A stretch of DNA of 64,000 nucleotides, taken from the NCBI GenBank assembly GCA_041600715.1, contig JBFIJM010000001.1, positions 64,387 through 128,386 on the forward strand, read 5' to 3'. The translations under genes were made by a program, and so were the position numbers. The notes below the pieces were generated by a model that saw only the letters and a program-made list of their open reading frames with translations, was not told the origin of the DNA and did not search any database. This DNA comes from Candidatus Saccharimonadales bacterium. Lineage in GTDB: Bacteria; Patescibacteriota; Saccharimonadia; Saccharimonadales; 2-12-FULL-41-12. Below are positions 371 through 53,379 of the stretch, piece after piece. Each line of letters opens with the position of its first letter. The stretch's first letter is position 1.

Positions 371-1666
371 ATGATAGATATACAGCTTGTTCGTGATAAT
401 CCAGAATTTGTAAAAGAAAAAGCCACCCAAAAAGGCTATGAGGTGGATATTGATCGACTTTTACAGCTTGATAATGACCGCAAGGAGTTATTGCAAACCG
501 TCGAGTCTTTAAGAGCCCGCCGTAATGAAATTTCTGAGAGCATGAAAGGTGGGAAACCGGCAGACGAGTTAATAGAAGAAGGGCGTCTTCTTAAGGTTGA
601 GTTATCAGAGCGAGAAGGTTATCTTGAAGCAACAGAGTCTGAGTGGCTGGAATTACTAAAATCTGTGCCGAATATGCCACTAGATGTTGTGCCTGTAGGG
701 TCTACTGAGGACGAGAATGTCGTAGTTAAGACATGGGGCGATAAGCCACAGTTTAACTTTGAGATTAAGAATCATGCCGAAATTGCCGAAGCTAAAGGGT
801 GGCTAGACAAAGACCGTGGTGCAAAAATCGCAGGATCACGCTTCGTGTATTTAAAGGGTGATTTAGTTCGCCTTGAGATGGCTCTGTGGCAGTTCGGAGT
901 AGATGTTGCAGGGAGTGAATCCACTTTACAACGCTTAATAGCAGAGAACAATCTAAACCTTTCTAGCAAGCCATTTATGCCTGTTTTACCTCCTGCTGTA
1001 GCAAAGAAGGAAATATTTGAAGCAACCGGTAGGCTTAATAAAGAAGAACAGACCTACAAAATAGAAGATGAAGATTTATGGCTCAATGCTAGCGCAGAGC
1101 ATACAATTGCGCCAATGTACTACAAAGAAATTTTAGATGAGGCAGAATTACCACTCCGTTACATTGGTTATACAACAGCTTTTCGTCGAGAGGCCGGAAC
1201 GTACGGCAAAGATACAGAGGGATTCTTACGTCTTCATCAGTTTAACAAACTAGAGATGGAGAGTTTTACTGACGCGCAGACATCACTGGATGAACACTTA
1301 TTGATGGTAGCGATTCAGGAGCATTTAATGCAACAACTTGGTTTACCGTATCAGGTACTAGAAAAGTGTACAGCTGATATAGGTAGGCCCAACGCTAAAG
1401 GTGTAGATATTGAGGTCTGGCTCCCTGGCCAAGATCGGTACCGCGAAACACATACCGCCGATTACATATCTGATTTTCAGACCAGAAGCATGCAAACCAA
1501 AGTTCGCAAAAATGACGGGACGCTTGAACTAGCGCATACCAATGATGCTACCGCATTTTCTCAACGACCACTTATTGGTATTATTGAGAATTTTCAGACA
1601 GCAGAGGGTGATGTGATCATTCCTGACGTATTACGGCCATATATGGGTGGTCGAGAAAAGATCTAG
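371..1666 (+). CDS. serS: seryl-tRNA synthetase
   Basis: 431 aa with N-terminal coiled-coil arm and class II core motifs (FRREAGTYGKDTEGFLRLHQF, TAFSQRPLIGIIEN). TATAAT 359-364 ends 6 nt before the ATG. Confidence 0.95.
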   Translation: MIDIQLVRDNPEFVKEKATQKGYEVDIDRLLQLDNDRKELLQTVESLRARRNEISESMKGGKPADELIEEGRLLKVELSEREGYLEATESEWLELLKSVPNMPLDVVPVGSTEDENVVVKTWGDKPQFNFEIKNHAEIAEAKGWLDKDRGAKIAGSRFVYLKGDLVRLEMALWQFGVDVAGSESTLQRLIAENNLNLSSKPFMPVLPPAVAKKEIFEATGRLNKEEQTYKIEDEDLWLNASAEHTIAPMYYKEILDEAELPLRYIGYTTAFRREAGTYGKDTEGFLRLHQFNKLEMESFTDAQTSLDEHLLMVAIQEHLMQQLGLPYQVLEKCTADIGRPNAKGVDIEVWLPGQDRYRETHTADYISDFQTRSMQTKVRKNDGTLELAHTNDATAFSQRPLIGIIENFQTAEGDVIIPDVLRPYMGGREKI

Positions 1667-2226: not shown

Positions 2227-4836
2227 ATGGTGAAGGTGAAAAATAAGGTACTACGTCGCGCTCTCGGCGATCCTCAAATCCGGACATTAAAACGACTCAC
2301 TAAACGCGTCGCTAGTATTAACGAGCTTGAACCTAAGTACAAGAAGCTAACCGACAAGCAACTTGCTGACCAAACAGATAAGCTCAAGAAGCGTATCGAA
2401 AAAGAGTCTCTAGATAAAGTTCTGCCAGATGCCTTTGCGATTGTTCGAGAGGCCGCTAGAAGAATCTTAGGACAGCGTCATTTTGATGTTCAGTTAATTG
2501 GTGGAATGGCGCTTCACGAAGGTAGTATCGCAGAGATGAAAACAGGTGAGGGTAAAACTCTTACTTCTACTGCGCCGGTATACCTCAATGCCCTTAAGGG
2601 TGAAGGTGTTCATGTGGTTACTGTAAATGATTATCTAGCCCAGCGAGACGCCGCCTGGATGGGGCAAATATTTGGATTTCTGGGACTTACAACGGGTGTA
2701 ATAATTGCTGAGTCTTCTTTTATTTTTGATAAGGACTATGATAATGGCGAACATGATGATCCAAATATGCGCAAGCTCAAGCCATGTAGCCGACAGGAAG
2801 CCTACTTAGCTGACATTACTTACGGAACAAACAATGAGTTTGGGTTTGATTACCTTAGAGATAACATGGTTCGCGAGACAGAACAGTTACGACAACGTAA
2901 ATTAAATTTTGCTATTGTTGACGAAGTTGACTCAATTTTGATAGACGAAGCACGTACACCTTTAATTATCTCTGCACCTTCTACTGCCAGCGGTACTGCA
3001 TACCAGCAATTTGCAAAAGTTGTTCGTGGCCTAAAGGAAGTGGATCATTACACAGTTGATGAAAAACGAAAAGCTGTTACATTAACCGATGAGGGCATAG
3101 ATCAAGTCGAAAAAGTTCTTGGGATATCTAATCTGTACGCCTCAACTAATATTCGTACTCTCTACCATCTCGAGCAGGCTCTAAAGGCTCAGGGTATGTT
3201 TAAGAGAGATAAAGACTATGTGGTGACTACAGATGGCGAAGTAGTAATAGTTGACGAACACACCGGTCGCCTATTAAAAGGCCGTCGTTATAATGAGGGG
3301 CTTCATCAAGCTATCGAAGCCAAAGAAAACGTTGAGATTCAGGAAGAGTCAATGACGCTTGCAACGATCAGTTTCCAGAATTACTTCCGTTTATACGAGA
3401 AATTATCCGGTATGACAGGTACAGCTTCAACCGAAGCTGAAGAATTCCATCAGGTTTATAAATTAAGTGTTGTAGAAATCCCTCCGAACAAAAAATTAGC
3501 TCGTATTGATCAACCGGATCAGATATATAAAACAGAGGCCGGCAAGTTTAAGGCAATCATAAAAGAGGTGAAACGGCTCAATAAAAAAGGTCAACCAGTA
3601 TTAATTGGCTCTGCTTCGATTGCAAAGAACGAACTGCTAAGTTCACTTTTGACTAAGGCAGGCGTAAAGCACCAGATGCTTAACGCAAAAAACAACGAGC
3701 GTGAAGCTTCGATAATTGCCAAAGCTGGTCAAAAGGGAGCAGTTACACTGGCTACAAATATTGCTGGCCGTGGCACAGACATAGTATTGGATGCTGGAGC
3801 CAAAAAGGCCGGGGGATTGTTTGTTCTTGGGTCAGAGCGTCACGAGTCGCGTCGTATAGATAACCAGTTACGTGGGCGTGCTGGTCGTCAGGGTGACCCT
3901 GGTGAGAGTAGGTTCTACGTTAGTTGCCAGGACGACTTAATGAGAATCTTTGGCGGTGACAGAATCGCAAAAATGATGGATCGGCTTAAAGTAGACGACG
4001 AAACACCAATAGAAAACCGTGTGATTAGTAAAAGTCTTGAAGGATCTCAGAAAAAAGTAGAAGGCTTTAACTACGATGCCCGCAAAGATGTGGTGAAATA
4101 TGATGACGTCATGAATCGTCACCGTAAGGCTACTTACAGCATGCGTAGCGAGATATTGAAGCAAGCGGATATAAGCAAGCGTGTGTGGGAATTTATTAAT
4201 TCCGAAGCTGAGGCGCTTGCAAACTCACCACATGCTACAACCGACAAGTACGAAGAGATGATTAAGCATGTTTTTCCGTTCGACGAATCCACACTTGATA
4301 AATTATTTGATTCACCAGCCCACAGCTTCGAAAAAGAGCTGAAAAACGATGCAAAAAAACTCTATCAAGAACAAGAAGAACGCTTTGGCGAGGAGATACT
4401 GCGCAAGATCGAGCGTGACGTGTATTTACAAACGTTGGACAACTATTGGATGCAACATTTAGAGAACATGGAGCACCTACGTGAAGGCATTCGCTGGATG
4501 GCTGTTGGCCAGAGGGATCCCTTAGTCGAGTATCGTCGTCAGGCACAGCGTCTTTTCGAAGAGTTGCAGAGAACCCTCCGTCACGATGTTGTCAGGTCGC
4601 TCTTCCACGCCCGACCTATTAATGAGGCCGATCTTGATCGTTCTGTAGAAACAGAACTGACCAAAGCAGCACGACGGTCCGTAGATAATGCTGATAAAAT
4701 AATTGAAGCAGAAGAATTTAGTGAAATTAACTTTAACTCAGAAGTAAAAGAAACTGCCGAAAAGAAGAAAGTAGCTAATAAGCGAAAAAAGTCACGAAAA
4801 GCCGAGCGCCAAAGACGTAAAAAAGGCCGTAAGTAA
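2227..4836 (+). CDS. secA: preprotein translocase ATPase SecA
   Basis: 869 aa; MKTGEGKTL Walker A, DEVDSILIDEARTPLIIS, GRGTDI. Basic C-terminal tail without the usual Cys/His zinc motif. Confidence 0.97.
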   Translation: MVKVKNKVLRRALGDPQIRTLKRLTKRVASINELEPKYKKLTDKQLADQTDKLKKRIEKESLDKVLPDAFAIVREAARRILGQRHFDVQLIGGMALHEGSIAEMKTGEGKTLTSTAPVYLNALKGEGVHVVTVNDYLAQRDAAWMGQIFGFLGLTTGVIIAESSFIFDKDYDNGEHDDPNMRKLKPCSRQEAYLADITYGTNNEFGFDYLRDNMVRETEQLRQRKLNFAIVDEVDSILIDEARTPLIISAPSTASGTAYQQFAKVVRGLKEVDHYTVDEKRKAVTLTDEGIDQVEKVLGISNLYASTNIRTLYHLEQALKAQGMFKRDKDYVVTTDGEVVIVDEHTGRLLKGRRYNEGLHQAIEAKENVEIQEESMTLATISFQNYFRLYEKLSGMTGTASTEAEEFHQVYKLSVVEIPPNKKLARIDQPDQIYKTEAGKFKAIIKEVKRLNKKGQPVLIGSASIAKNELLSSLLTKAGVKHQMLNAKNNEREASIIAKAGQKGAVTLATNIAGRGTDIVLDAGAKKAGGLFVLGSERHESRRIDNQLRGRAGRQGDPGESRFYVSCQDDLMRIFGGDRIAKMMDRLKVDDETPIENRVISKSLEGSQKKVEGFNYDARKDVVKYDDVMNRHRKATYSMRSEILKQADISKRVWEFINSEAEALANSPHATTDKYEEMIKHVFPFDESTLDKLFDSPAHSFEKELKNDAKKLYQEQEERFGEEILRKIERDVYLQTLDNYWMQHLENMEHLREGIRWMAVGQRDPLVEYRRQAQRLFEELQRTLRHDVVRSLFHARPINEADLDRSVETELTKAARRSVDNADKIIEAEEFSEINFNSEVKETAEKKKVANKRKKSRKAERQRRKKGRK

Positions 4837-45447: not shown

Positions 45448-46352
45448 GGCTAGGCAAGAAGAAGCAGGGTGCTAAAACATTACTCCGAAGCCCTAATCGA
45501 CAAAGAGCAAAACAGCAGGCATACCACTATAGTGCAAAGCGCTCCAGCTCTGATAGAGCATTTGATAGGACTATGATTACTGATAACCCCGCTTCTTCTG
45601 GATATCGGTCGTGGCCAGAAACAATCCTGTCCATATTTGGCGTTTTACTTTTCCTAGCTGGTGCTATATATGTTATGACGTTATCCACCAACGCACAGAT
45701 TAAAGTTAAAGATAACCGTAACTTACCTAATCAATCAGATGTTCAGAAGAAAGCAGATGCCATTTTAGGTAGTTCGCTTACTAATAGAAGTAAGTTCACA
45801 ATTGATACAAGGAAGTTTGAAGAAACCCTTTCGAGTGAATTCCCAGAGCTTAGCGACATACATCTTTCTATATCAATGTTGCGTCACAAGCCACTGGTTA
45901 CTATTCAAATAGCTAACCCAGCCCTGAGTATAGTTAGTGGCAATAAGGAGTATGTTGTTGGTGATGACGGGGTTGTTATGTACGATATTAACAACGTACC
46001 GAGCTCTAGCAAAACCCCTAAAGATCTCCCTGTAGTACAAGATCAATCATCCTTTGATATAGAGGTTGGTAAGCAGGTGCTAACTGTTTCTCAGATTAAA
46101 TTCATAGACGAGATCACTTATCAGTTATCCCAGAAAAATATTTCTACAGAAAGTATGATTATAAAGGGAGGTGGCGGGGAGTTACAGCTACGTCCTGGTG
46201 GGGAGCTATACTATGTAAGATTTAATTTTTTTGAAGATGCTATAAAATCAAGTGGAACATATCTAGCTGTCCGCGAGAAGCTCAAAGCCGATAATGTGGT
46301 TGTTTCAGAATATATAGATGTGCGCGTGCCAGAACGTGCCTATGTTAAATGA
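45444..46352 (+). CDS. ftsQ: FtsQ/DivIB-like cell division protein
   Basis: ATGA overlap with murG; basic N-terminus, single TM, extracytoplasmic POTRA-like domain; canonical position. Confidence 0.65.
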   Translation: MRLGKKKQGAKTLLRSPNRQRAKQQAYHYSAKRSSSDRAFDRTMITDNPASSGYRSWPETILSIFGVLLFLAGAIYVMTLSTNAQIKVKDNRNLPNQSDVQKKADAILGSSLTNRSKFTIDTRKFEETLSSEFPELSDIHLSISMLRHKPLVTIQIANPALSIVSGNKEYVVGDDGVVMYDINNVPSSSKTPKDLPVVQDQSSFDIEVGKQVLTVSQIKFIDEITYQLSQKNISTESMIIKGGGGELQLRPGGELYYVRFNFFEDAIKSSGTYLAVREKLKADNVVVSEYIDVRVPERAYVK

Positions 46353-46964
46353 AAGTACTATCACACTACCCTTGCTGTTCGTAAATTGTTCGTATAAAAG
46401 AAACTTCATGATTCTGGAGAAAAACATATAATACATACAAAAAAGGGGAATGTCAAAATTCTCGGGTTTTTTTCAGCAAGGCGGGGGAGTTCACAAAAAA
46501 TATATAATCCGTGAAAAAACGTGAAAATGCAAATCCACGTTGTGGAAAACTAAATAACGACATAGAATCAATTTAATAATTGAAAGTCTGCTTCAAAGAA
46601 AGGTGTTATGAGCCGATTCTTTAGCGTAAACTACGCAATTGTACCGTATATAGACTTCGGTAGTTCCCTGGCTAGGTGTGTCAGTATTCATTAAAACAGA
46701 ACATATACAAGTCGTAAAATATACATTGTGCGACGTTATGTCACAAGCGCTTTCATGCAGTTTTATTACTGCCCTATGCCTCACACTAAGTTTTAATTTT
46801 TAGTTCACTGCAATTTGTTGTTACTTATATAGTCTTGCCTGTATCGAAGCTTAAATAAAAAAGACCTACTGTTTACCGGTTTAATTAATAAACTTTATAA
46901 TAGTAACTATACTTTGTGTAGTTACTATTTATTTTCGAGCTTCATTAACTAAGGCTAGATATAT

Positions 46965-47204
46965 TTAGTTAATGGATCTGTCTTGGTTATTGTTTGGGTT
47001 CTCAAGAGCCTTTATAGCTCCTAAGAAAGCTATGCCTACACCTGTACTAACCCCAACCCTAGTTGTTATATCAGCCTTATAAAGTGCCAAATTAGTTATG
47101 AAGGAGTAAAGTAATGGTACCGCCACATACAATCCATTACTAGTTTCAGACTGTTCTGGGCTATTATGACTTTCCAGCCTGTCTGTTGGTTGCTGTTCGT
47201 GCAT
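46965..47204 (-). CDS. small hypothetical membrane protein (79 aa)
   Basis: ATG lies 2 nt after the stop of 47207..48232; two hydrophobic segments (LYVAVPLLYSFITNLALY, GVSTGVGIAFLGAI). Confidence 0.4.
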   Translation of the reverse strand: MHEQQPTDRLESHNSPEQSETSNGLYVAVPLLYSFITNLALYKADITTRVGVSTGVGIAFLGAIKALENPNNNQDRSIN

Positions 47205-47206
47205 TT

Positions 47207-48232
47207 TTACTCCGCTAGAGCGTATGTAGCTTTGCTAACGCGCTTGAACTGATCTTTTCCTTGCAGGTTAAGTAAGATAGTCGTTTCTTTAACGTAGCGA
47301 CTCTTAAGCACGCGCTTAACGATCTCATCACGGTGCAGAGGCTCGTTAGCTTCTTTCAGTACTTCTGAAATGATGTCAGAAACGGTGCCTTTTTTATAGC
47401 CCCATTCCTTTAAGGCGTAAATACCTCGGCCTATTAATACAAATCGCTTGTCTTTGATAAGTTCATTATGTATTGCTTGAGTAGTTACATCTTTTCGCTT
47501 AAAGTCAGAACCTTTAATCGCATCAGAGATTTCACTAAAGTGCATATGTTTGCCGTGTTGCTGAAGGATCACGTAGATCTTGTCTCGGATGTTCTTAGGA
47601 TTAACTGTAGGCCATTTGATTAGGCCCCACTTTTCATTAAGTGTGGCTAAGTTTTTAGATGTGCTCGACAAAGCTTCTACGTGGCTAGGCTCTGGATGAT
47701 TAATATGCTCTGCAACCTGACTAACCTTGGCTGGTTCGCCAATTTTCTTAAGAGCATTAATTATTTCACTGACGTGCTGTTGAATTTTCTTTTCATCGTG
47801 GACTTCAGTAATTGCCACCGACTGATAAAAATGATCATTATCAGTAACTACACTGAGAGACGGGCATAATTCACTAACAAAACTTAACCTAGACTGGTCG
47901 ATCTTAGTGCTTGTTTCTCCAGTCAGAACATCTGCAAGTTTTGATACACGAGCAATATTGCCTAGCTCTTTTAGCTTAGTAGACAGTGTATTATCTGCTT
48001 CTTGAAGACCTGTTAACTCCCCTGCCTCGGCATTCATGCGTAGTCGTGTCATTGTAGCTTTTTCTAGCTGTCGTACGCGCTCACGTGTGATGCCCAGTAG
48101 TTCGCCTATTTGCTCGAGGGTTTCTTTGCGGTCGTATAGACCATAACGACGAGCAATGATTTCTCTCTCTCGTTCCCTGTCTATCGATTCAAGTATCTGC
48201 TTAACAAGTGCTTCGATCTCTTTTTTTGTCAT
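47207..48232 (-). CDS. sigma-70 region-4 HTH fused to three HARE-HTH-like modules
   Basis: N-terminus RRYGLYDRKETLEQIGELLGITRERVRQLEKATMTRLR (region 4.2). Three modules ending WGLIKW, GIYALKEWGY, KATYAL resemble the RNAP delta-subunit HARE-HTH. Confidence 0.7.
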   Translation of the reverse strand: MTKKEIEALVKQILESIDREREREIIARRYGLYDRKETLEQIGELLGITRERVRQLEKATMTRLRMNAEAGELTGLQEADNTLSTKLKELGNIARVSKLADVLTGETSTKIDQSRLSFVSELCPSLSVVTDNDHFYQSVAITEVHDEKKIQQHVSEIINALKKIGEPAKVSQVAEHINHPEPSHVEALSSTSKNLATLNEKWGLIKWPTVNPKNIRDKIYVILQQHGKHMHFSEISDAIKGSDFKRKDVTTQAIHNELIKDKRFVLIGRGIYALKEWGYKKGTVSDIISEVLKEANEPLHRDEIVKRVLKSRYVKETTILLNLQGKDQFKRVSKATYALAE

Positions 48233-51762: not shown

Positions 51763-51791
51763 TTGACAATCCGAAACAAGTTTGCTAGAAT
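51763..51791 (+). promoter_or_regulatory. strong orphan sigma70-type promoter TTGACA-17-TAGAAT (with TGn extension)
   Basis: TTGACA 51763-51768, 17-nt spacer ending TGC, TAGAAT 51786-51791. No ORF follows for ~500 nt. Confidence 0.7.
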
Positions 51792-51797
51792 GTCAAT

Positions 51798-52156
51798 TTG
51801 TAAGCCTATAAACTTATTATGTTTATATGTCTTAAGTACCTTCCATACCCCCAATGTTAGATTGTTTTAGAGTGTGCCCTTGCTGGCACAGCTATGCAGA
51901 AGTTGTTACCCTCCACTTCAGTATAGCCTATCTTACTCCGGTAAGAACTCTAAAACATACTAACCCCTTTAACATTCAGATGGTCCTCAATGCGAGGCTA
52001 TCTGAGTACCCCTATTCAAAGTGAGTATTGACGTATTCCGGATTTATCTGGAGGCGCCTGGTTGACCATTGCGTAACCATAGGACGCTTCACTGGGGTGG
52101 GTTGAAGGGTGTAATGAGCCTCCAGCGGTGCCCACCCCCTCTGGAGGCTCTTTTTT
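51798..52156 (+). ncRNA. unassigned structured RNA (~360 nt; candidate sRNA or cis-regulatory leader)
   Basis: Bounded by promoter 51763-51791 and an intrinsic terminator. Compact four-way junction 51863-51957 nested in helix 51853-59/51970-76, plus alternative pairings around the terminator. 5' end is estimated. Confidence 0.5.
52116..52156 (+). terminator. rho-independent terminator
   Basis: GAGCCTCCAG (52116-25) / CTGGAGGCTC (52141-50), 10-bp GC-rich stem, 15-nt loop, then TTTTTT 52151-56. Confidence 0.75.
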
Positions 52157-52296
52157 GTGGTGATATTTCTTTGGTGATGACAAGAAGTGCTCACTGCATC
52201 TTCTGCCCCCCTTGGAGACACCCTCCTTGTTTTTGATCAATGTCTTTACAAAACATAACTATTATGCTATAATGTATAGTAAGAAAAATATTATCT

Positions 52297-53055
52297 ATGG
52301 ACATTGTGCAAAGAGCTTTGGTACAGTCAGCGCGCGCCGAGAATACCGGTAGTGCAATGATGGAGATTGAACGCGAACACCAGTCAAAGGTGCGTCGTGA
52401 TTTGGCGATCGCTTATCATAAAAGTATTGGTAAAGTAATGCTCCGTGGATTAGGCGCATCACTTGGAGTCGGGTGTTATATTGGTGCCGGCTTTCAACAG
52501 ATCGCATTCCATGATGTTAGCCGTCAAGAGGTGCTAAAACTAAGGATGAATAGCATAGGGTTATCGCACACTAAGGCTAAGGATACTGCCAAATCCATGC
52601 AACAGGAATACGATGTAGCTAAGCACTACATGCAAGAAAATTGGCTAGACACCTATATTGACGTTATTAAACTTCCGCAGGCCGTAGGAGGCTTTGCTGT
52701 GGCTAGTATGCAACCATATGTTGAAGGACGCATAACCTTTGAATCGTATAAGGATATTATTGGTTATTCTGTAGATTATTCATTTATAACAGCACAAAAG
52801 GAATATGTGGACCACGCCCTGAACTTATATGATAACGAGGGCATGTTCCCTGATATATTTGGCAGGAATAATATTTTCTTAAATGAGTCAGAAACGTTAT
52901 TGCAAGTTGATACAATGCCTGTTACTCCCAGACAACTCCAAAAACCGTCCGCTTTTGTATCCTTTGATAAGCAAGTAGACGAATTTAACCATGCATTTTG
53001 TGCATGGCAAGAGTCACTTCCATCGTTAGCTAACCAATATACCGAACAGAATTAG
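52297..53055 (+). CDS. hypothetical protein (252 aa); very weak kinase-like loop resemblance
   Basis: Own TGcTATAAT promoter (52265-52273). FPDIFGRNNIFL...LLQVDTMP vaguely recalls kinase-fold catalytic/Mg loops. Not reliable. Confidence 0.5.
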   Translation: MDIVQRALVQSARAENTGSAMMEIEREHQSKVRRDLAIAYHKSIGKVMLRGLGASLGVGCYIGAGFQQIAFHDVSRQEVLKLRMNSIGLSHTKAKDTAKSMQQEYDVAKHYMQENWLDTYIDVIKLPQAVGGFAVASMQPYVEGRITFESYKDIIGYSVDYSFITAQKEYVDHALNLYDNEGMFPDIFGRNNIFLNESETLLQVDTMPVTPRQLQKPSAFVSFDKQVDEFNHAFCAWQESLPSLANQYTEQN

Positions 53056-53085
53056 GCGGAATTTTTGTTATAATTAAATACGATT

Positions 53086-53379
53086 ATGGAAATTAAGGAC
53101 GACTACGCAATACTAACCCAGCAAGAGGCTGAGACTACTGGATTACCGGAAAGAGTACATCTCAGCGAAGATGGTTTACTCGAGGTTCTAGATTTTGCCC
53201 AGAAAGCAGATGAGCAGATGATATCTGATAGAGCTGATTGTGACACTCTATATGGTGCTGATATGGCAAGAGTGATGAATGCAGAGCGCCGATTGCATAT
53301 ACGTCGTCCATTGATTACTAAGTTGCTTCAAGAGTTTAATGTAATGACTTTTATCAAAGAACTCGACGAAGAACTATAA
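53086..53379 (+). CDS. hypothetical acidic protein (97 aa)
   Basis: ORF after TGtTATAAT (53064-53072); no motif recognised. Confidence 0.45.
   Translation: MEIKDDYAILTQQEAETTGLPERVHLSEDGLLEVLDFAQKADEQMISDRADCDTLYGADMARVMNAERRLHIRRPLITKLLQEFNVMTFIKELDEEL

Follow-up and report, generated by a model that had tools for sequence, protein, structure and literature searches.

What is transcribed from the gap beside dprA in a 64,000-nt stretch of the genome of a Candidatus Saccharimonadales bacterium (contig JBFIJM010000001.1, positions 64,387 to 128,386; hereafter the window), where a promoter and a terminator enclose no credible open reading frame (ORF)? The window ORF survey finds nothing above 74 amino acids in the gap, and the short ORFs there are unconserved, in agreement with the initial annotation, which had been made from the sequence alone and proposed a structured non-coding transcript of riboswitch or attenuator type. 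The promoter, the terminal hairpin, the run of six T and the junction that it described are all found where it had placed them. The structured non-coding transcript part of that interpretation is supported, while the riboswitch or attenuator part is not supported. Window positions 51798-52156 on the + strand very probably form a gene of their own, encoding a new non-coding RNA (ncRNA) that is highly structured and has a fixed locus across Saccharibacteria, and we infer that this RNA works in trans. The RNA family is previously undescribed in Saccharibacteria and matches no Rfam family.

The RNA is conserved together with its position in the genome. Pfam assigns the neighbouring genes to TopA, DprA, Pth and Der/EngA, and the gene order is almost everywhere the same, with (topA) dprA pointing leftward, the RNA rightward, and pth and der leftward again. 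Homologues were reached through DprA, and hence independently of the RNA sequence. The DprA relatives found (41-57% identity) all belong to metagenome-assembled genomes of Candidatus Saccharibacteria/Saccharimonadia, and an RNA homologue lies upstream of and divergent from dprA in 9/9 loci reached in this way (nhmmer E = 1e-13 to 4e-42); with the single copy in the window (E = 2.5e-92) this gives 10 copies. The initial annotation had made conservation in relatives a test of its reading, and the element is indeed conserved in the dprA-adjacent regions, with covariation supporting both the junction and the terminal hairpin. In addition, a metagenome scan with a pattern of two invariant blocks, GGTGGGTTGAAGGGT ... 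GCGGTGCCCACCCCCTC, matched at least 120 contigs, and profile searches of the matches listed yielded 100 further full-length copies, 98 of them distinct. Full-length copies span 370-580 nt with the promoter, and the RNA itself approximately 360-520 nt. The RNA is thus kept at a single locus across hosts whose DprA proteins are 41-57% identical, a pattern that is typical of core-machinery RNAs, none of which it matches. One apparent variant copy (L121b; L numbers denote loci) was rejected as independent: L121 carries near-identical inverted RNA copies at 983-1415 (-) and 2869-3307 (+), with dprA fragments and scattered single-base indels, which is probably a palindromic assembly artefact.

The predicted transcript is approximately 359 nt long, its start being placed from the -10 box (± 2 nt) and its end at the U-tract; all features described below lie on the + strand. 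The near-consensus promoter at 51763-51791 that the initial annotation had recognized is confirmed, as it scores 11/12 plus an extended -10 and is found upstream of the RNA in 98/98 distinct copies. The -35 box at 51763-51768 reads TTGACA in 90/98 distinct members and TTGACT in 8/98, and the extended -10 element TG-c-TAGAAT at 51783-51791 follows a 17-nt spacer, a length shared by 88/98 members, with TG kept in 97/98 and TAnnnT in 98/98. At the other end, the terminal hairpin P10 (52116-52150) combines a 10-bp covarying stem, formed by the arms GAGCCTCCAG (52116-25) and CTGGAGGCTC (52141-50), with the invariant 15-nt loop CGGUGCCCACCCCCU at 52126-40. Each of the ten stem positions is paired in 94-97 of 97 members and takes 1-7 pair types, the closing G-C alone being invariant, and the T6 tract at 52151-52156 recurs in the family, 93/97 members having 5 or more T among the 8 nt that follow the stem. 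An intrinsic terminator about 360 nt downstream of the promoter is therefore upheld, since a GC-rich hairpin directly precedes a U-tract, an assignment made from sequence; a simple terminator scan missed P10 solely through its 15-nt loop.

Between these signals the RNA is predicted to fold far more stably than its composition would give. The 359-nt predicted transcript has a minimum free energy (MFE) of -133 kcal/mol, compared to -92 ± 5 kcal/mol for dinucleotide shuffles (z = -7.7), and the opposite strand gives z = -5.2. Conservation is block-wise, with invariant blocks lying between hairpins of variable length and sequence in which the indels are found, and there is no coding periodicity, which is the mark of a structured RNA and cannot be reconciled with a protein-coding role. 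In all, five blocks of sequence are without variation among the copies. Covariation, evaluated by anchored counts and by MAFFT/RNAalifold for each domain, backs at least six helices, and mutual information independently recovers P4, P6, P8/P9 and P10. The body of the RNA consists of a 5' hairpin, a three-/four-way junction presenting the UGUUACCCUCC loop, and a 3' multi-helix domain. Taken together, a conserved promoter, compensatory changes, the lack of a conserved ORF and conservation independent of the neighbouring genes mark a stand-alone ncRNA gene.

The 5' hairpin P1 (51801-51834; GUAAG.../...CUUA(C), with a variable apex) is a single hairpin in 98/98 members, and its 91 distinct sequences have a mean MFE of -7.7 kcal/mol compared to -1.8 kcal/mol in shuffles. 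It is followed by a near-invariant C-rich strand, GYACCUU...CCCCC, at 51836-51854. The junction is closed by P3, whose 5' strand UGUUUUAGAGU (51863-51873) pairs with 51947-57, and both sides are changed in 9/17 pairs among 38 sequences, for example to GUUUAAGAG/CUCUUAAAC or GUCCUAG/CUAGGAC. Inside it, the hairpin P4 (51891-51927) exposes the invariant loop UGUUACCCUCC at 51904-14, which contains CCUCC; TACCCTCC of P4 is invariant in the 10-sequence alignment and present with at most one mismatch in 98/98 members, and the loop-proximal pairs are formed in 75-92 of 98, with CG, UA and GC variants. The hairpin P5 (51931-51946) varies in both sequence and length, and mutual information links 51874 with 51946. 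The four-way junction with three hairpins proposed by the initial annotation holds for the window, but in most relatives the junction is three-way, as the hairpin at 51874-51889 (P3a) is specific to a subgroup and missing in most relatives. Insertions of 100-170 nt occur in the junction hairpins P3a/P5 of L002 (~3710-3860, -), L071, L036 and L017, so these appear to be variable expansion segments that are tolerated there.

Similarly, the second, outer helix that had been drawn around the junction (51853-59 / 51970-76) rests on a real complementarity, but one specific to the window; what the relatives keep is P2, in which GUUAG at 51856-51860 pairs with CUAAC at 51960-64. The 3' strands of P3 and P2 thus lie together at 51947-51964, and P2 shows compensatory variants such as AAUAG/CUAUU (L099) and GUUAA/UUAUU (L069). 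GUUAG also has an alternative partner, an upstream UCUAAC that is found in most relatives and absent from the window's subgroup. Each of the two pairings shows compensatory changes in some lineage (e.g. L069, L030, L099, L108, L008, L046, L120), and in some relatives GUUAGA is present twice, which allows both helices. The dual partners may reflect a switch between conformations or flexibility in evolution.

After the variable hairpin V5 (51974-52007), the 3' multi-helix domain is closed by P6, where AGUG at 52020-52023 pairs with CACU at 52090-52093; its second pair is UA in 16 sequences, CG in 15 and UG in 5, and mutual information connects 52022 with 52091 and 52023 with 52092. The domain encloses the hairpins P7 (52024-37) and P7b (52038-51), spanning 52024-52051, of which P7 alternates between the forms GAGUAU...GUAUUC and GAGCC...GGUUU, and the helix P8/P9 (52052-52089), in which both sides are changed in 7/11 pairs and whose 5' strand includes CTGGAGGC at 52048-55. 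P8 covaries at two positions (GC:19/AU:17 and AU:26/GC:9). Among 36 sequences, 94.4% of the cells of P6, P8/P9 and P10 are paired, compared to 85.2% in shuffles and 40-58% with slid partners, and 156 compensatory cells are observed against 44 in shuffled data, the observed score being reached in 0/500 shuffles. The equivalents of window 51974-52093 fall into two architectures, class I (n=74, including the window; UCAAAGYGAG...GAYGYUUCRCU) and class II (n=13; CCCGCAUUCCCCCUCG...GAGUGGGCC...GGAGGCCUUCAAGG), which share identical flanking invariant blocks.

The 3' domain is joined to P10 by an invariant G-rich strand, GGGGUGGGUUGAAGGGUG (52094-52111), with GGUGGGUUGAAGGGU identical in 10/10 DprA-route copies, and this strand has two candidate partners. 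In the candidate pseudoknot PK-A, the block B5, CCCUUUAAC (51965-51973; invariant in 36/36), would pair with GUUGAAGGG at 52101-09 through nine contiguous pairs (-10.9 kcal/mol), and the sole B5 variant, an A to G change in L001, retains a G-U pair. In the candidate PK-B, 52094-100 would form seven to eight pairs with the terminal loop at 52132-38 (-17.7 kcal/mol); the complementarity of GGGGTGGG (52094-101) to CCCACCCC (52131-38), first pointed out by the initial annotation, is borne out. When the RNA is folded without pseudoknots, the pairing of the G-strand with the loop (-22.9 kcal/mol) competes with the terminal hairpin (-21.3 kcal/mol). A weaker rival to PK-A is the C-rich 5' strand at 51836-51854, a possible alternative partner of AAGGGUG at 52105-11 (duplex -7.0 to -8.7 kcal/mol).

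The terminal loop also occurs outside the RNA. L016 (IMGVR_UViG_3300049064_000004), an IMG/VR provirus contig, carries the full RNA plus a second hairpin that has the identical 15-nt loop on a different stem, lying approximately 1 kb away on the opposite strand (loop 6864-6878, -) and upstream of recT. On this contig (1-7900) the place of dprA ahead of the RNA is taken by a region resembling a provirus or mobile element, which encodes RecT, an FtsK/PD-(D/E)XK fusion, and C5 and N6 DNA methyltransferases. In an IMG/VR scan the 15-mer CGGTGCCCACCCCCT (window 52126-52140) is found in 88 viral contigs, a bare count that is at chance level, as two control invariant 15-mers of the RNA occur in 62 and 57 contigs. 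About 55 of the 88 loci, however, flank the 15-mer with perfectly complementary arms of 7-18 bp, representing 48 distinct stems, whereas none of the control 15-mers lies in a hairpin (their flanks are complementary over no more than 4-5 bases and lack family context). The closing pair of the phage hairpins is G-C in 45/55. Contigs bearing the hairpin have a G+C content of 38-63%, mostly 40-50%, compared to locally ~35-52% in the host, and the 26 stemless matches are mostly in high-GC contigs. In the 1.68 Mb examined, no loop variant with 1-3 mismatches stands in a hairpin context, and none with 1-4 mismatches exceeds chance; in the 859 kb of host DNA examined, the loop occurs solely in this RNA.

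The phage hairpins (in viral loci among L137-L223) are sense-oriented, and in roughly 20 of the 55 loci a co-directional ORF ends 1-20 nt before the hairpin. They are found in tailed-phage morphogenesis modules, gene roles being read from translations: for example, between a portal gene with a small ORF and the gene of an acidic scaffold-like protein, ahead of terminase-like ORFs, or behind capsid-like ones. In a few loci (L137 2754-2794, L164 3584-3618, L138, L153, L206) the hairpin falls inside a long ORF predicted in the same direction; the homologous loci L137 and L164 show compensatory stem changes. A T-rich tail follows the hairpin in only 10/55. No cis G-strand (GGGUGGG) is found near the phage hairpins, and the RNA profile matches phage loci through the hairpin alone and not through the rest of the RNA. 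tRNAs are present in 2/55 loci and adjacent in none, and GenBank phages gave neither a relative of the portal protein nor a hairpin match. Stems that vary around a fully invariant 15-17-nt loop, with no partner in cis, suggest that a trans-acting factor recognizes the loop. Furthermore, since tailed phages carry the 15-nt loop on unrelated stems in their late regions, the terminal hairpin appears to be an autonomous recognition module.

These findings suggest a model in which a sigma-70 extended -10 promoter would drive the RNA, and the covarying hairpin with its U-tract would end the transcript. The RNA probably works in trans, as the RNA component of a ribonucleoprotein, and would most probably form part of a conserved cellular factor or be bound by it with high affinity. 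Its invariant loops UGUUACCCUCC, with its anti-Shine-Dalgarno core CCUCC, and CGGUGCCCACCCCCU would serve as recognition or contact surfaces. The invariant G-strand, for its part, would pair with two invariant C-rich elements and either lock the 3' domain through PK-A and PK-B or toggle between masking and exposing the terminal loop, and phages might copy this loop in order to use or titrate the same factor. A bolder extension, which we offer tentatively and consider rather doubtful at present, is that the RNA is the core of a new Saccharibacteria-wide ribonucleoprotein or regulatory RNA, that its loop docks a host factor or the RNA's own G-strand in trans, and that phages copy the loop on late-gene hairpins to recruit, titrate or evade that factor. 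If true, this would reveal RNA mimicry between host and phage in the Candidate Phyla Radiation (CPR), with the cis G-strand acting as a loop-masking switch.

Such an RNA would matter because Saccharibacteria and the CPR have tiny genomes and almost no described regulatory or structural RNAs. Searches of the literature on structured RNAs of Saccharibacteria and the CPR, including searches with the invariant strings, returned no description of it, and a 2022 TM7x transcriptome preprint presents that organism as lacking validated small RNAs. The reuse of the loop suggests a host factor on which phages of CPR bacteria depend, and its exact reuse by many uncultured phages provides an experimental handle, with the hairpin being usable as a bait for the partner. 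Importantly, cultivable, naturally transformable Saccharibacteria exist (PMC10633639), and deletion, loop mutation and pull-down are therefore feasible.

Several considerations weigh against the reading as a stand-alone trans-acting RNA. The ends of the RNA are placed by sequence signals only. The metagenome retrieval pattern itself fixed the G-strand and the loop, so their invariance is shown independently by the 10 DprA-route copies alone. Both pseudoknots lie in invariant nucleotides, and covariation is accordingly silent on PK-A, on PK-B and on the rival 5' strand. On geometric grounds, the coexistence of a full 8-bp PK-B with a full 10-bp P10 is sterically unlikely, because in an H-type arrangement the 2-nt linker after CCCACCCC must cross the shallow groove of an 8-bp helix, and the two may be alternative states. 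Finally, the phages are assigned to Saccharibacteria by their G+C content and by a single provirus contig linked to Saccharibacteria, L016.

Among the alternatives, the one that survives best is a base-pairing small RNA (sRNA) of the RsaE/RoxS type, in which the C-rich elements UACCCUCC, CCCACCCCC, ACCCCC and AACCCCUU would pair with the G-rich Shine-Dalgarno regions of putative target mRNAs or mimic the anti-Shine-Dalgarno sequence of 16S rRNA. The RNA does have four or five invariant C-rich elements, and a hairpin loop backed by covariation holds the exact anti-Shine-Dalgarno core. However, it is three to four times larger than sRNAs of this type, its invariance covers blocks of 9-17 nt and the whole 15-nt loop, which is well beyond a seed, and some of the C-rich elements have G-rich partners in cis. 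As a full account of the RNA this explanation is unlikely, and a base-pairing role is compatible with the stand-alone trans-acting RNA as a sub-function.

Less likely still is a role of the shared hairpin at the level of DNA, as a site of phage attachment, recombination, packaging or replication, with the 3' end of the RNA serving as attB. Each phage locus examined holds a single copy, the 3' end of the RNA is directly followed by an islet of variable genes, and in L016 the RNA borders on the provirus-like region, which contains recT, ftsK/PD-(D/E)XK and two genes for DNA methylases. An attB/attP relationship was considered and rejected, as the stems are perfectly complementary in host and phages with no hybrid attL/attR, the L016 copies are inverted and not direct, and no att-like repeat of the RNA 3' end is present at the far side of the islet; these same observations disfavour a DNA-level role in general. 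The co-orientation of the phage hairpins with flanking genes of morphogenesis modules, often just after a stop codon, also argues against it, and no integrase is found among the few neighbouring ORFs annotated.

The islet itself extends in the window from the 3' end of the RNA to pth (52157-53379) and contains a 252-aa ORFan and a 97-aa ORF, both without a Pfam match. As noted by the initial annotation, the downstream gene (52297) has a promoter of its own, TTTACA-17-TG-TATAAT at 52245-73. Homologues of the 252-aa ORF are present in two other loci alone (L049, L074), and in relatives the islet is empty or contains a methyltransferase or other small ORFs. Among loci in general the downstream content varies between ORFans, a methyltransferase and nothing, and the methyltransferase of L004 is the only Pfam match for ORFs downstream of the RNA. 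The best 120 Pth relatives share 58-100% identity. Elsewhere in this gene-dense window, another ~855 nt (46352-47207) are without an ORF of at least 110 aa and without a match at Rfam gathering thresholds.

A highly divergent housekeeping RNA (RNase P RNA, transfer-messenger RNA (tmRNA), signal recognition particle (SRP) RNA or 6S RNA) that standard models miss in the CPR has a lower probability again, although the size, the strong promoter, the fixed locus and the near-universal presence of the RNA resemble those of rnpB and ssrA. Bacterial genomes typically contain 3-4 ncRNAs. The complete genome of the oral TM7 strain HMT352 KC1 is reported to have only 2 PGAP ncRNAs (PMC8830319). This is below the usual number, so that one or more housekeeping RNAs of the TM7 lineage may be missed by standard models. 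In addition, CPR RNase P RNAs fall below Rfam thresholds, but they are detectable with RF00010 at lowered thresholds, and RNase P RNAs of this type have been reported in the circular CPR genomes of one study, including two Saccharimonadia (PMC8172020), which speaks against the RNA being a divergent RNase P RNA.

Direct searches point the same way. At gathering thresholds, Rfam 15 finds only tRNA-Glu in the whole window, nothing relevant appears in the region at E <= 10 and nothing consistent in 18 homologues at E <= 5, including RF00010, tmRNA, SRP and 6S models, so the confident hit that would have contradicted the initial annotation did not appear and its exclusion of tmRNA, RNase P RNA, SRP RNA, T-box and TPP elements stands. 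For RNase P RNA (RF00010/RF00011), the CR-I motif AGGAAAGUCC occurs with at most one mismatch in 1/98 members and CR-IV/CR-V (ACAGAA...GGCUUA) exactly in 0/98. ARAGORN, applied to the window and to the first 136 loci, detects no tmRNA, a GGUUCGAAUCC-like T-arm with at most one mismatch is found in 0/98, and the 3' end is a 10-bp hairpin with a U-tract, where a tmRNA would have acceptor pairing and a CCA end. The motif of SRP domain IV, a hairpin with a GNRA-type tetraloop (GGAAGCAGCC-like, at most one mismatch), is likewise found in 0/98, with no Rfam hit, and the T-box sequence AGGGUGGNACCGCG in 0/98 with up to two mismatches. 6S RNA is a rod of ~180-200 nt with a central bubble, whereas the fold described here is branched and multi-domain, with no RF00013 hit; a 6S-like function, namely binding of RNA polymerase, is possible. 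The models of OLE, GOLLD, ROOL, raiA and HEARO did not match either at gathering thresholds or with the cut-off relaxed to E <= 10.

The weakest alternative, a cis-regulatory leader in which a ligand- or factor-dependent choice between terminator and antiterminator controls read-through into the downstream gene, is largely refuted and very improbable: it can draw on the G-strand that competes with the terminal hairpin and on CTGGAGGC, which is complementary to the 5' arm of P10, being a copy of the 3' arm, and could pair with it in the window, but this complementarity is not conserved (7/97 members have 7 nt or more of their own 3' arm repeated upstream, compared to 4/97 for a foreign-arm control, essentially the same distribution) and the segment is the 5' strand of the covarying helix P8, no co-directional gene is conserved downstream, in 17 loci the convergent pth stops at -10 to +42 nt relative to the 3' end of the RNA and leaves no co-directional gene to regulate, the gene downstream in the window has its own promoter, and the identical loop is used on phage hairpins with no G-strand nearby.

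With the stand-alone trans-acting RNA as the preferred explanation, its closest counterparts are the lineage-restricted large ncRNAs raiA motif RNA, OLE, ROOL and GOLLD. These are likewise stand-alone genes of several hundred nucleotides with covarying helices, invariant nucleotides and probable pseudoknots, they are restricted to single lineages, and their context does not reveal their function. The RNA of the window has no sequence or structure match to them, and it differs in its phylum (Saccharibacteria/CPR), its fixed syntenic locus and its phage-shared loop; we know of no report of a phage-shared terminal loop for RNAs of this kind. In its proposed working, the RNA is similar to 6S RNA/Ms1 and to CsrB-type sponges, which are strongly constitutive trans-acting RNAs whose conserved surfaces bind a conserved protein, but it has neither a rod with a central bubble nor repeated GGA motifs, and membership in these groups is not supported. 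With the C-rich sRNAs RsaE and RoxS it shares several exposed C-rich motifs, including CCUCC, that are complementary to the Shine-Dalgarno sequence, but it measures ~360-520 nt compared to ~100 nt, is multi-domain, and has invariant blocks that extend far beyond seeds. T-box and other antiterminator leaders similarly have a G-rich strand (GGGUGG...) upstream of a terminator and complementary to part of its hairpin; here the complementarity is to the loop and not the stem, and there is no regulated downstream gene, specifier, T-box sequence or Rfam hit. For the terminal hairpin module only, the likeness is to the boxB hairpin of lambda nut (N/NusA), the HK022 put RNA and coat-protein operators. 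The sequences are unrelated, the 15-nt loop is larger, and the phage hairpins lie in or after late morphogenesis genes and not just downstream of promoters. Like those elements, this candidate module combines a variable stem with an invariant loop, is sense-oriented in phage transcription units and has a counterpart in a host RNA.

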